Source: Escherichia coli (GTDB taxonomy: Bacteria; Pseudomonadota; Gammaproteobacteria; Enterobacterales; Enterobacteriaceae). From it: 64,000 nt of DNA. The position numbers were made by a program, and so were the translations under genes. Below are positions 1,458-7,124 of the stretch, piece after piece. A model generated the notes under the pieces. The model was not told the DNA's origin. It saw nothing but the letters and a program-made list of their open reading frames with translations, and did not search any database. Numbering within the stretch: the stretch's first letter is position 1; every line of letters starts with the position of its first letter. The stretch lies in NCBI RefSeq assembly GCF_036507355.1, contig NZ_AP027877.1. One strand, written 5' to 3'.

Positions 1458-2675
1458 ATGCCCGAACCCGTAGCCGAACCCGCGCTAAACGGATTGCGCC
1501 TGAATTTGCGCATTGTCTCCATTGTCATGTTTAACTTCGCCAGCTACCTCACCATCGGGTTGCCGCTCGCTGTATTACCGGGCTATGTCCATGATGTGAT
1601 GGGCTTTAGCGCTTTCTGGGCAGGATTGGTTATCAGCCTGCAATACTTCGCCACCTTGCTGAGCCGCCCTCATGCCGGACGTTACGCCGATTTGCTGGGA
1701 CCCAAAAAGATTGTCGTCTTCGGTTTATGCGGCTGCTTTTTGAGCGGTCTGGGATATCTGACGGCAGGATTAACCGCCAGTCTGCCCGTCATCAGCCTGT
1801 TATTACTTTGCCTGGGACGCGTCATCCTTGGGATTGGGCAAAGTTTTGCCGGAACGGGATCGACCCTGTGGGGCGTTGGCGTGGTTGGCTCGCTGCATAT
1901 CGGGCGGGTGATTTCGTGGAACGGCATTGTCACTTATGGGGCGATGGCGATGGGTGCGCCGTTAGGCGTCGTGTTTTATCACTGGGGCGGCTTGCAGGCG
2001 TTAGCGTTAATCATTATGGCCGTGGCGCTGGTGGCCATTTTGTTGGCGCTCCCGCGTCCGACGGTAAAAGCCAGTAAAGGCAAACCGCTGCCGTTTCGCG
2101 CGGTGCTTGGGCGCGTCTGGCTGTACGGTATGGCGCTGGCACTGGCTTCCGCCGGGTTTGGCGTCATCGCCACCTTTATCACGCTGTTTTATGACGCTAA
2201 AGGTTGGGACGGTGCGGCTTTCGCGCTGACGCTGTTTAGCTGTGCGTTTGTCGGTACGCGTTTGTTATTCCCTAACGGCATTAACCGTATCGGCGGCTTA
2301 AACGTAGCGATGATTTGCTTTAGCGTTGAGATAATCGGCCTGCTACTGGTTGGCGTGGCGACTATGCCGTGGATGGCGAAAATCGGCGTCTTACTGGCGG
2401 GGGCCGGGTTTTCGCTGGTGTTCCCGGCATTGGGTGTAGTGGCGGTAAAAGCGGTTCCGCAGCAAAATCAGGGGGCGGCGCTGGCAACTTACACCGTATT
2501 TATGGATTTATCGCTTGGCGTGACCGGACCACTGGCTGGGCTGGTGATGAGCTGGGCGGGCGTACCGGTGATTTATCTGGCGGCGGCGGGACTGGTCGCA
2601 ATCGCGTTATTACTGACGTGGCGATTAAAAAAACGGCCTCCGGAACACGTCCCTGAGGCCGCCTCATCATCTTAA
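1458..2675 (+). CDS. yhhS: MFS transporter YhhS (405 aa)
   Basis: ORF 1416..2675; start set at MPEPVAEPALNG; hydrophobic 12-TM-like sequence. Confidence 0.9.
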   Translation: MPEPVAEPALNGLRLNLRIVSIVMFNFASYLTIGLPLAVLPGYVHDVMGFSAFWAGLVISLQYFATLLSRPHAGRYADLLGPKKIVVFGLCGCFLSGLGYLTAGLTASLPVISLLLLCLGRVILGIGQSFAGTGSTLWGVGVVGSLHIGRVISWNGIVTYGAMAMGAPLGVVFYHWGGLQALALIIMAVALVAILLALPRPTVKASKGKPLPFRAVLGRVWLYGMALALASAGFGVIATFITLFYDAKGWDGAAFALTLFSCAFVGTRLLFPNGINRIGGLNVAMICFSVEIIGLLLVGVATMPWMAKIGVLLAGAGFSLVFPALGVVAVKAVPQQNQGAALATYTVFMDLSLGVTGPLAGLVMSWAGVPVIYLAAAGLVAIALLLTWRLKKRPPEHVPEAASSS

Positions 2676-2678
2676 AAC

Positions 2679-3236
2679 TTACTGAATAACCAGCGTATTA
2701 ATGATGTTTTCTGCGGTTGTCTGCGCTTTTTGCTGATCGTCAGCTGGCAGCGTAATTTGCATGGTTAGCAGTTGATTACCCACGTTACCCAGAATAACGG
2801 AAGAGTACGCCGTCTGGCCTTTCGCGGAGATAATACTGTCTAACTGCTGCATTTTGTGACCTTTCAGCTCAATGGCTTTATTGGTTACCACTTGCAGCTG
2901 CGGATCGCGGCTACGTTGCTGATCTTCCAGACGCTTCGCCAGCACCGCCAGATCTTCTTTCGGATCATCGCCCATGATGACGATGACTGCTTTCTGCCCG
3001 GTGGCGTCGGACCAGACATGCATGTTATTGGCCTGCGTTCCCAGCTTACCGCTCTGGTCGGTCATATCCGCTGGCAGCGAGAAACTTAACTTGCCATCAA
3101 GCAGGTTGACGGGATTCCCGGTAGCGTTACTTTCCGCGACCGAACCCTGCGCCGTAGCGTTAGTGTCTTTATCATCACAGGCCGCAAGCCCCATAACCAG
3201 CAGGCCAATTCCGACATATTTAACCAGATTGCGCAT
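2679..3236 (-). CDS. dcrB: Periplasmic lipoprotein DcrB (185 aa)
   Basis: ORF 2679..3290 trimmed to [20 protein letters not shown] (lipobox). Confidence 0.9.
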
Positions 3237-3974: not shown

Positions 3975-4194
3975 ATTGTACCTTTTTGATTAACCATTGG
4001 GGTGAGGGAACCCAATACGTACGACACGTCTGTTACCTTAACATAATAACGTGCTTACCCTTTTTTCGAGCCGCCGCATGATACTGCTTTACGTTGACAA
4101 TGCAATGGTTAATTTTCACGCAATCGTTAACCTGATTTGCTTACGGACTCACAGGGCGTAAACTAGCGCCGTTTTTTTATGTGATGAGAAGAAA

Positions 4195-4440
4195 ATGACC
4201 GATCTCTTTTCCAGCCCTGACCACACACTCGACGCACTTGGCCTGCGCTGCCCGGAACCCGTAATGATGGTGCGCAAAACAGTGCGCAATATGCAGCCAG
4301 GTGAAACGTTGCTGATTATTGCTGACGATCCGGCGACGACCCGCGATATTCCTGGGTTTTGTACCTTTATGGAACACGAACTGGTTGCTAAAGAGACGGA
4401 TGGACTGCCTTATCGCTATTTGATTCGTAAAGGTGGTTAA
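4195..4440 (+). CDS. tusA: Sulfur carrier protein TusA (81 aa)
   Basis: [23 protein letters not shown]... with the CPxP motif. Confidence 0.95.
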
Positions 4441-4525
4441 GGTGGATCACGGACTGTTACCCTAACCCTCTCCCCAGAGGGGCGAGGGGACCGATCGCAC
4501 TCAATGTTGCTGCTTGAAACCGGTA

Positions 4526-4566
4526 CGTAGGACGGATAAGGCGTTCACGCCGCATCCGGCAAGCAA
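4526..4566. repeat. REP (repetitive extragenic palindrome) in the tusA-zntA spacer
   Basis: gtaggacggataaggcgttcacgccgcatccggcaagcaag, typical REP consensus. Confidence 0.7.
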
Positions 4567-4584
4567 GTGTAATGGAATACACAA

Positions 4585-4893
4585 ATGGATTATTTAATTC
4601 CTGTTTGCCTGGGATTGCTGGGATTGTTCGCGATGCTCGCCCCCAATTGGCTGATGCCTGTTTTAATCGCCGTGGGGGGATGGCTGGGGGTACTTGCCTG
4701 TGGTTGGCTCTGGCTAATGCTATTTTTACCTTTACTCAACGGCGTCGGGCTTGCTTATGCCCTGTGGTTGATGTTCAAAAGGCCATCATTCACGTCCCGC
4801 TTGGTTGCTACATGTTGTGTTATCTCCGTCATTCTGATGTTAGCGCTTTATTATGCTTTCCTGACCATGCCGCCGTTCCCGCCTCAGCACTAA
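4585..4893 (+). CDS. Hypothetical small membrane protein (102 aa)
   Basis: ATG-initiated ORF, strongly hydrophobic with 3 predicted TM helices, CTG-rich codon use; sits between convergent tusA and zntA; no recognised homolog. Confidence 0.35.
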   Translation: MDYLIPVCLGLLGLFAMLAPNWLMPVLIAVGGWLGVLACGWLWLMLFLPLLNGVGLAYALWLMFKRPSFTSRLVATCCVISVILMLALYYAFLTMPPFPPQH

Positions 4894-4925
4894 GCCTGAT
4901 AGCCAGAGGCTATCAGGCAACACCT

Positions 4926-7124
4926 TTACTTCCTGCGCAACAACCTTAACGCATTCGCCGTCACCAGCACCGTCGCACCCGTATCTGCCAGCACCGCCAG
5001 CCACAGTCCGGTCATCCCCAACAGCGTCGTGACGAGGAAGATCCCTTTCAGCCCCAGTGCAATAGTGATGTTCTGACGGATATTAGCGTGAGTGGCGCGC
5101 GCCAGTTCAACCATTTGCACCAGACCGCGCAGGTGGTTATGGGTTAATGCCGCGTCGGCGGTTTCCAGTGCGACGTCTGTGCCGCTACCCATTGCAATCC
5201 CAATGGCGGCAGCTTTCATCGCTGGCGCGTCGTTAATACCGTCCCCGACCATCGCCAGCGGCGCATGTTGATTCAGCTCGGTCACCGCTTTAACTTTATC
5301 TTCCGGCAACAGGCCCGCTTTAAATTCCAGCCCCAGTTCCCCGGCGATTGCCGCCGCGGCGCGTGGATTATCGCCGGTGAGGATCACTCCTTTGACGCCC
5401 AGCGCGTTCAGTTCACTGATGGCAGTTGCAGCATCGGCGCGCAGAGTATCCTGCAATGCAATGATACCCAGCACGTCATCGTTACGTACTACCAGCACTA
5501 CCGTTTGCCCGGCGCTTTCCAGCTCGTTAATTAAACCAGCAAATGCATCAGCGGGATGTTTCCCGGCAGCGCATATCAACACGCGCTCACCGTTAACCTG
5601 TGCTTCAATGCCAGACCCGACCAGCGCCCGCTGTGATTCGGCGGCGGGAATGGCGAGTGCAGCAACCTGTGCTTCGCGCACGATGGCCTGCGCCAGTGGA
5701 TGCGTCGCGCCTTGCTCGACCGCCGCCGCCAGTGTCAGCAGTTCAGATTCACTAATACCCGTTGCCGGATGAATCGCGGTAACGCGCGGTTTACCGACGG
5801 TCAGCGTACCGGTTTTATCAAACGCCACTTGGGTAACACGACCTAGCTGCTCCAGCGCCGCACCGCCTTTAATTAACGCCCCACGACGTGCCGCTGCTGC
5901 CAGCCCGGAGGTAATCGCCGCGGGCGTGGAGATAACTAACGCACACGGGCAGCCAATCAGCAGCAGCGTCAGCCCTTTATAAATCCACTCTTGCCAGCTG
6001 GCGGCAAACAGCAGCGGCGGCACCAGCGTTACCAGCAGGGCGACGGCCATAATCGCTGGCGTATAAATACGGCTGAAACGGTCGATAAACCGCTCAATGG
6101 GGGCGCGGCGCTCTTCGGCTTCTTCGATCAGTTTCAGAATCCGGTCAATGGCGCTGGCACCCGGTTCTGACAGCACTTCCAGCGTTACCAGACGGTCTAC
6201 GCTGGTGGCTCCTGCAGGAACTTTATCGCCCGTTGCGCGCTCCACCGGAATGGATTCGCCGGTCAGGGCGCTTTCATCAAAACTGGCAAAGGGCGAGAGC
6301 AGTTTACCGTCGGCAGGCAAACGCCCGCCCGCCGCAACTTCAATCACATCGCCAGGCCGCAGGCTGTTAATCGCCACCTCTTCCCGCTCACCGTTACGCA
6401 GGCGCGTGGCGGTTTCTGGTTTCAGCGCCATTAACGCGCTAACGCCCTGACGCGCGCGGCTGGCGGCCCAGCCTTCCAGTCGTTCACCAATCAAAAACAG
6501 CAGCAACACCATCGCAGCTTCAGCCGTTGCGCCAATAAACAGCGCACCAATAGCAGCTACGCTCATTAACGTTTCAATGGCGAAGTAACTGCCTGATTTG
6601 ATCAGCCGTAATGCCTGACGAGCAATCGGGTACAGCCCAACCAGCGTGGTCGCGATAAACGCCAGTTGCCCGAACGGATGATTGAACTGCTCCAGACCCC
6701 AGCTGATTACCATCATCACGATAAGCGTAATCAGCGACAAATTCTCTTTCAGGCGTGATGTTTGCGGTTCTTCGGCGGACTGTTCATCGCGCAGGGAATA
6801 GCCCGCTTTTTGCACCGCAGATTCAACTTGTGCACGGATGTCATTGTCGGCATCAACCACCAGTTTTTCGGTGGCGAACAGTACCTGCACCTGATTCACG
6901 CCTGCAAGCTGGCGCACGGCATTTTCTACCTTGCGCGCACAGGCGGCGCAGTCCATGCCGCTGACTTTCCAGCTATAGCGGGTGCCGGAGACGTTTTCAG
7001 AGAGCGTTGGCGTGCTGGAACATGCGCCGTCGCAGCAACAGTCGTTGGCGTTCTGTACCGTGGTTAGCGGTTTGAACGCAGCAAATTGAGGGGCTTTCTT
7101 GCCGTGATTGTCAGGAGTCGACAT
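4926..7124 (-). CDS. zntA: Zn/Cd/Pb-exporting P-type ATPase ZntA (732 aa)
   Basis: 732 aa; N-terminal metal-binding CxxC region, CPC transmembrane motif, DKTGT phosphorylation motif. Confidence 0.95.
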   Translation of the reverse strand: MSTPDNHGKKAPQFAAFKPLTTVQNANDCCCDGACSSTPTLSENVSGTRYSWKVSGMDCAACARKVENAVRQLAGVNQVQVLFATEKLVVDADNDIRAQVESAVQKAGYSLRDEQSAEEPQTSRLKENLSLITLIVMMVISWGLEQFNHPFGQLAFIATTLVGLYPIARQALRLIKSGSYFAIETLMSVAAIGALFIGATAEAAMVLLLFLIGERLEGWAASRARQGVSALMALKPETATRLRNGEREEVAINSLRPGDVIEVAAGGRLPADGKLLSPFASFDESALTGESIPVERATGDKVPAGATSVDRLVTLEVLSEPGASAIDRILKLIEEAEERRAPIERFIDRFSRIYTPAIMAVALLVTLVPPLLFAASWQEWIYKGLTLLLIGCPCALVISTPAAITSGLAAAARRGALIKGGAALEQLGRVTQVAFDKTGTLTVGKPRVTAIHPATGISESELLTLAAAVEQGATHPLAQAIVREAQVAALAIPAAESQRALVGSGIEAQVNGERVLICAAGKHPADAFAGLINELESAGQTVVLVVRNDDVLGIIALQDTLRADAATAISELNALGVKGVILTGDNPRAAAAIAGELGLEFKAGLLPEDKVKAVTELNQHAPLAMVGDGINDAPAMKAAAIGIAMGSGTDVALETADAALTHNHLRGLVQMVELARATHANIRQNITIALGLKGIFLVTTLLGMTGLWLAVLADTGATVLVTANALRLLRRK

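Follow-up and report, generated by a model that had tools for sequence, protein, structure and literature searches.

TusA-like proteins have membrane partners of the YeeE/YedE type (Pfam Sulf_transp), whose genes lie next to YeeD/YedF. Small hydrophobic accessory proteins of bacterial membrane complexes form another described set, with KdpF, MgtS, and AcrZ as examples, all single-pass and shorter than 50 aa. At the tusA-zntA locus itself, a member of the HPG1 repeat group (HPGQ no. 40) is listed between zntA and tusA in Escherichia coli K-12, HPG1 being a "G-quadruplex-hairpin-duplex switch" repeat of E. coli (Kaplan et al. 2016, PMC5100583).

We analyzed the spacer between tusA and zntA in a 64,000-nt stretch of E. 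coli DNA (the window), where an HPG1-type palindrome and a REP unit are followed by an open reading frame (ORF) for a 102-aa hydrophobic protein. In our judgement, this ORF is probably a real gene, under weak constraint and dispensable, whose product is a small protein of the inner membrane; it would belong to a family located downstream of tusA and have been lost by deletion in most E. coli. The repeats have already been described and the ORF has already been annotated; the tusA-linked family is undescribed.

Layout of the spacer and its repeats

The window is 98.3% identical to E. coli strain UTME-3 over 4 kb. The first-pass annotation described tusA and zntA as convergent and separated by about 485 bp containing a near-palindrome and a canonical REP unit, and this description is borne out: the spacer between the two coding sequences spans 4441-4925 (485 bp), and both repeats are present within it (Table 1). 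We infer that tusA is the upstream gene of an operon with the 102-aa ORF, while zntA is a convergent neighbor outside the tusA-ORF unit.

Table 1. Positions of genes, repeats, and signals in and around the tusA-zntA spacer of the window.
Feature	Position	Strand	Basis
tusA (sulfurtransferase TusA)	4195-4440	+	Pfam TusA 3.1e-23; NCBIfam PRK00299 9.8e-47; named tusA in related genomes
Degenerate HPG1 copy (hairpin / putative G-quadruplex element)	4454-4489		hairpin stem 4466-4488
REP unit	~4527-4560	-	exact 28-nt REP core 4533-4560
Weak Shine-Dalgarno-like GGAA	4574-4577	+	ends 7 nt before ORF ATG; putative function
102-aa hydrophobic protein gene	4585-4893	+	ATG ORF; RefSeq 'hypothetical protein'
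Perfect hairpin, 11-bp stem / 3-nt loop	4894-4918		100% complementary inverted repeat
zntA (Zn/Cd/Pb P-type ATPase)	4926-7124	-	732-aa ORF; named zntA in related genomes

The palindrome at 4466-4488 (CCCTCTCCCCAGAGGGGCGAGGG), which had no match in shuffles of the window, folds into an interrupted stem of 9 pairs. When the HPG1 21-mer (GGGAGAGGGTTAGGGTGAGGG) was compared to the window, it matched 4454-4474 on the minus strand with 3 mismatches and loss of the fourth G tract, so the hairpin is kept and the canonical four-tract quadruplex on that strand is not. The orthologous 101-bp spacer of K-12 carries the exact GGGAGAGGGTTAGGGTGAGGG. The window copy therefore belongs to HPG1 by descent, in degenerate form, and would not qualify by the G4 motif: it shares with HPG1 a hairpin-forming C-rich/G-rich palindrome, an intergenic position at the same locus as HPGQ no. 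40, and dispersal (E. coli genomes have a median of 12 places matching a 72-bp segment with the palindrome), and differs in its three mismatches and missing tract. HPG1 is presumably the same as the older 'Box C' intergenic repeat. In the Leclercia tusA-dctP spacer (L023:2744-3061), we also noted a similar C-rich/G-rich palindrome, CGCTCTCCTTCAGGGAGAGGGCG, together with a canonical terminator hairpin and no ORF homolog, indicating that this repeat class recurs at the tusA locus across genera.

The REP core (GCCGGATGCGGCGTGAACGCCTTATCCG) is exact on the minus strand, occurred 0 times in shuffles, and folds as a stem-loop. It lies in a ~35-bp imperfect palindrome that matches the consensus and is extragenic and multi-copy, with a 1-kb query containing it hitting a median of 20 places per E. 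coli genome. The sole hit in an Rfam scan was naRNA4 (REP-derived), which matched this REP upstream of the ORF at 32.7 bits, below gathering. As in other E. coli REP/BIME elements, the core, the between-gene position, the multi-copy nature, and the variable number (REP copy number at the tusA-zntA site differs among strains) are all seen, and the single unit here is in no way unusual. The HPG1 copy and the REP are thus ordinary, already described non-coding repeats, and the locus illustrates the splitting of an apparent operon by such elements.

Expression signals around the ORF were sparse. A consensus promoter scan of 4000-5100 found no sigma-70-like promoter, and likewise did not pick up that of tusA; promoter and terminator consensus scans of the spacer gave nothing usable, and scanning the interval between tusA and the ORF homolog at locus L011 revealed no plausible terminator or promoter. 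In every Escherichia copy, a GGAA[TG] motif is found at much the same distance ahead of the start codon. Two stable RNA structures separate the ORF from tusA, namely the hairpin of the HPG1 copy and the stem-loop of the REP. We also noted a hairpin (dG -20.6 kcal/mol, z -5.3) that the first-pass annotation did not mention, placed between the stop codons of the ORF and zntA; its stem sequence is kept in loci L006 and L009 with a different loop. Given that no T-run follows it, this hairpin is not a canonical intrinsic terminator, and is more likely an RNA 3'-end stabilizer or a barrier between convergent genes. A separate terminator-like hairpin, GGCGTAAACTAGCGCC followed by T7 (4155-4170, plus strand), lies in the divergent yhhQ-tusA spacer, ~25 nt before tusA begins; it is conserved in L006 and could act as a leader or attenuator, or mark where an upstream transcript ends.

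The 102-residue protein and constraint on its frame

The encoded protein is strongly hydrophobic (GRAVY 1.35), with hydrophobic stretches at residues 1-64 and 73-95 separated by a loop (K65-R72) that holds its sole basic residues, K65, R66, and R72. An AlphaFold2 model based on a 23-sequence alignment places helices at residues 4-18, 24-65, and 69-94 (pLDDT 73). From hydropathy and this model, the product would be a small inner-membrane protein with 3-4 transmembrane segments; the first-pass annotation was right about an ATG-initiated hydrophobic ORF, and its count of three transmembrane helices is not strictly upheld. The same annotation credited the ORF with E. coli-like codon usage, which did not hold: a CAI-like index trained on the window gave 0.49, compared to 0.69 +/- 0.05 for 31 long window genes (~4 SD below), and codon log-odds were ~0 versus 0.29-0.43 in neighboring genes, with the ORF frame still the best of six.

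Positions that are invariant or nearly so across the family (P25, G32, W33, N52, G53, G55, M63, R72, and S81) are structural, and no cysteine is conserved in the family alignment, C39 being replaced by W in other members and C77/C78 by F/S. Searches of Pfam and NCBIfam returned no match above threshold, the best being PAP2_3 at 9.6 bits (cut-off 27) and PRK12599 at 13.5 (cut-off 95), and there were zero matches in PHROGs, PADLOC, or PDB sequences. Foldseek comparison of the AlphaFold2 model to the PDB retrieved generic helical bundles only, at E > 1.

Substitution patterns nonetheless carry a coding signature. Among eight sequences, variable sites at codon positions 1/2/3 numbered 23/15/36, pairwise dN/dS ranged from 0.16 to 0.54, and no indel occurred within the 306 bp of the ORF, whereas the neighboring spacer is indel-rich. 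Pooled pN/pS was 0.39 in the ORF frame, versus 0.79 and 1.47 in the other plus-strand frames; one minus-strand frame also gave 0.39, sharing wobble positions with the ORF and holding 3-5 stops. The E. coli / E. albertii pair showed a synonymous excess in the ORF (Fisher p = 0.0004), and random placement of the observed substitutions left it intact with a probability of 0.08-0.25 per diverged lineage. For comparison, tusA had a pN/pS of 0.05 in the same genomes, and a pair of short-type homologs (loci L011 and L015, described below) gave a dN/dS of ~0.56. The frame-specific pN/pS, the Fisher test, and the low probability of staying open by chance together argue that the constraint on the ORF, as read from these comparisons, is real but weak.

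A second ORF overlaps the gene in the +2 frame (4572-4949, plus strand, 125 aa, MEYTNGLFNS...) and is open across the whole of that gene, and gene callers have used its start for the frameshifted alleles P0023-P0029. We rejected it as coding based on its pN/pS of 1.47 and regard it as a by-product of composition.

Distribution in Escherichia and homologs after tusA in other genera

The first-pass annotation supposed that the ORF might be an unannotated small membrane protein. The second half of that description is supported by the open frame across Escherichia, purifying selection in its own frame, and syntenic homologs; the first is not, as PGAP annotates the ORF as a CDS for a 'hypothetical protein', including WP_000385059.1 (UTME-3), WP_000385056.1 (CB6886), and WP_000385055.1 (SMS-3-5); UniProt lists the protein as A0A066QZ38_ECOLX, 'Uncharacterized protein'. 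These records represent the same gene at the same locus, with proteins 86-96% identical and with no name, family, or function attached, and the window holds one allele of it, its exact protein being found in 166 contigs at NCBI. A CDS was annotated under the ORF match in 60/60 carriers sampled from 317 complete carrier genomes. In the literature library searched with the three accessions, no paper cites them.

A comparison across E. coli had been proposed in the first-pass annotation. By megablast, the ORF is present in 317/5,426 complete E. coli genomes (~6%), with one chromosomal copy in each, and is missing from ~94%; both K-12 MG1655 and O157:H7 have a 101-bp tusA-zntA spacer with no ORF. 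Isolate 127 displays a third architecture, three REPs with no ORF, so REPs and ORF vary independently. In a scan of one genome per species, the 102-codon ORF was intact, with no indel, in Escherichia sp. E1V33, 'E. coli' SCPM-O-B-8794, Escherichia sp. MOD1-EC7003, E. albertii NBRC 107761, and E. whittamii, while frameshifted or truncated alleles (P0023-P0036) also exist in E. coli, E. marmotae, and E. albertii.

The E. coli alleles are not monophyletic and are interleaved with those of other Escherichia species. The window allele is nearest to Escherichia sp. E1V33 (dS 0.04), and the CB6886 allele is nearer to SCPM-O-B-8794 (dS 0.10) than to the window allele (dS 0.19). The tusA-zntA locus (window 4195-7124 compared to L001-L009) is unusually diverged among E. 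coli, two E. coli alleles differing by a dS of 0.17 for tusA and 0.19 for the ORF. Given this interleaving and the similar divergence of tusA, either inter-lineage recombination or an old polymorphism at the locus is likely. In one metagenome contig (ERZ27296531 k141_16413), we noted a chimeric protein, P0037 (L020:3001-3198), joining ORF codons 1-34 to the last 24 codons of ZntA; its junction has 7 bp of microhomology (TGGCTGG) with zntA inverted, and the contig ends in the 11-bp hairpin. The chimera reflects either a rare inversion or an error of assembly.

Using a profile of Escherichia sequences alone against 1.84 billion representative proteins, we recovered P0039 (83 aa, E = 1.9e-5) and P0042 (84 aa, E = 9.1e-4), and a wider profile added a third short homolog, P0076 (86 aa). 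A 360-aa repetitive protein matched by the Escherichia profile, P0040, was set aside as a low-complexity false positive. The three short homologs are 33-38% identical to the window protein, and P0039 ends in ...FPAQH, like the Escherichia proteins. TBLASTN, another check suggested beforehand, also matched homologs outside Escherichia, at 35-41% identity over 75-82 residues. P0042 derives from Huaxiibacter chinensis and from a genome labelled Lelliottia amnigena; the TusA beside P0076 clusters with those of Leclercia and Enterobacter (a Leclercia-like lineage), and the TusA beside P0039 with that of Superficieibacter (a Superficieibacter-like lineage). Across these genera tusA DNA is ~78% identical, and similarity of the ORF between genera is seen at the protein level only.

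At the short homolog loci, the gene order yhhT-yhhS-dcrB-yhhQ-tusA is conserved, and the small gene comes next on the tusA strand, starting 35-37 bp past the tusA stop (for L015, counted from the MRTF start codon, as in P0042), with AAGGAA ahead of its start. This position directly after tusA is shared by L010, L011-L014, L015, L006, and all Escherichia loci. On the other side, zntA is separated from the small gene by a dctPQM TRAP transporter operon in two homolog lineages (Huaxiibacter and Leclercia-like), and by a DUF2004 gene in the third homolog lineage as well as in E. albertii and MOD1-EC7003. Given that these genes intervene before zntA while the adjacency to tusA is kept, the ORF is linked to tusA and not to zntA. 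From position and sequence similarity, it appears to belong to a small, unnamed, and undescribed Enterobacteriaceae-restricted family linked to tusA. No ORF homolog or remnant was found after tusA in the examined loci of Klebsiella pneumoniae, Pluralibacter gergoviae, Pseudocitrobacter faecalis, Superficieibacter, Leclercia, and Atlantibacter hermannii.

The DUF2004-type gene (162-165 aa; L008:3369-3866 on the minus strand in E. albertii NBRC 107761, and L010:688-1176 on the minus strand) is convergent with the small ORF, L007 likewise has an extra ~680 bp, and the gene is absent from the window and the examined E. coli loci. NCBI names its product 'DUF2004 domain-containing protein', and Pfam-A gave no match at E <= 1. 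The dctPQM operon occurs between tusA and zntA whether or not the small ORF is present (L011:4423-7221, L015:4410-7208, L019, and L023-L025), and is missing at this site in Escherichia. We also considered the ORF product as a small subunit of the ZntA P-type ATPase, and rejected this given that the two genes are convergent and are separated elsewhere by dctPQM or the DUF2004 gene.

Both forms of the gene occur in tandem in one strain, E. coli SCPM-O-B-8794 (L006, NZ_JAATUR010000004.1), where the spacer between tusA and the ORF is 453 bp (2548-3000) and the order is tusA, 27 bp, a short-type copy, a REP, and the intact 102-aa gene. The short copy is nearest to P0042 by tblastn and is frameshifted at a T8 run, which could be a homopolymer sequencing error. 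The start regions of the two copies are alike, AAGGAATGGTGAAAATG and AAGGAATGGCAAAATG, with AAGGAATGG..AAAATG in common. Aligned to the long protein, the short ones cover its residues ~21-102, making the Escherichia form ~19 residues longer. The first 17 residues of the long protein are most similar to the extreme N-terminus of the short proteins (shuffle p = 0.001), and they also match its own residues 21-37 (p = 0.02). The simplest reading would be that the gene was duplicated in tandem and that, in the Escherichia form, the first transmembrane segment was also duplicated internally.

Probable history, alternatives, and comparison with known systems

In the history that we favor, the gene would have stood immediately after tusA on the same strand, most likely as the second cistron of the tusA transcript. 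Homologs in other genera have no REP between them and tusA, so the repeats (an HPG1-type palindrome with at least one REP unit) would have been inserted in Escherichia between tusA and a gene that was already there. The window ORF would now be expressed by read-through from tusA, probably at a low level: both the HPG1 hairpin and the REP stem-loop stand in the path of such a transcript and are expected to lower expression. The transcript would end at the 11-bp hairpin that the ORF shares with zntA. Presence of the gene in E. albertii, E. whittamii, and other Escherichia, together with syntenic homologs elsewhere, points to an ancestral presence, with the K-12-type spacer produced by a ~395-bp deletion; REP, gene, and hairpin would have been deleted together in most E. 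coli, including K-12 and O157:H7. The different junction of isolate 127 suggests a second, independent loss.

Several alternatives bear on whether the ORF is a gene at all. It may be a decaying relic or a fortuitously open hydrophobic frame, neutral in E. coli, open in some lineages only by recent common descent, and heading for loss, as would fit its poor codon adaptation, an omega of ~0.4 (~0.56 for the short type) versus 0.05 for tusA, its deletion in most complete E. coli genomes and absence at the locus in six other genera, the recurrent frameshift and truncation alleles, and a composition that readily gives open frames, the overlapping +2 frame being nearly stop-free as well. We consider this unlikely, however, as a relic would not readily account for the third-position bias, a pN/pS of 0.39 that no other stop-free frame shares, an indel-free frame beside an indel-filled spacer, or the improbability of staying open under random substitution. 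Nor would it readily explain amino-acid similarity and position kept across genera with tusA DNA so diverged, or that intact 102-aa clusters in protein databases hold far more member sequences than disrupted ones.

Conservation of a nucleic-acid element instead of a protein (the zntA 3' region, an antisense RNA, or a structured RNA) is suggested by the location of the ORF in the 3' flank of convergent zntA, ending 1 nt before a very stable conserved hairpin. The codon periodicity of substitutions, the similarity between genera being detectable in protein alone, the lack of any Rfam match other than the sub-threshold REP-derived one upstream, and the homologs in Huaxiibacter and the Leclercia-like lineage, which dctPQM parts from zntA while tusA adjacency stays, make this highly improbable. 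The first-pass annotation also offered REP-associated insertion as a source, with the ORF as its by-product, which would mean sequence that REP/BIME expansion carried in or generated. This reading draws on the ORF directly adjoining a REP whose number at the site varies between strains. It fails on the homologs of other genera, which lie close behind tusA with no REP between, as well as on the three REPs without an ORF in isolate 127 and the single copy of the ORF in every carrier compared to the many places hit by the REP-containing query, and we regard its chance of being correct as close to negligible.

Taking the ORF as a genuine small membrane protein gene, its product would be, with low confidence, an accessory or structural membrane protein at most loosely linked to TusA. 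A more specific role appears distinctly doubtful: as the Escherichia member of a small-membrane-protein family that works with TusA, it might, for example, anchor the TusA/IscS sulfur relay to the inner membrane or adjust its activity there, having been co-transcribed with tusA in an Enterobacteriaceae ancestor and repeatedly lost. Were this so, E. coli lineages with and without the ORF would differ, strain by strain, in how they traffic sulfur.

The analysis adds one probably real gene to the E. coli accessory genome at a well-studied locus, a gene that has never been studied given its absence from K-12. It also supplies evolutionary context in the form of an apparent ancestral tusA partner cistron, a tandem paralog, an apparent segment duplication, and probable losses by deletion. 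In practice, the benefit is confined to improving the annotation of a 'hypothetical protein' and to offering a candidate for small-membrane-protein studies in carriers such as O145:H28 and SMS-3-5, and current understanding is not challenged by the ORF.

Compared to the YeeE/YedE systems, the likeness is one of arrangement only, a TusA-family gene directly beside a same-strand gene for a membrane protein; the ORF protein is far smaller (83-102 aa across the family), has no Sulf_transp or other Pfam/NCBIfam match, and has no conserved cysteine. We considered it as a YeeE/YedE-type transporter of sulfur compounds and rejected this, as it gave no Sulf_transp hit and has no invariant Cys. With KdpF, MgtS, and AcrZ, it has in common that it is small, very hydrophobic, lineage-restricted, dispensable, and weakly conserved, and it differs from them in its 3-4 predicted helices and in a linkage to tusA rather than to a transporter.
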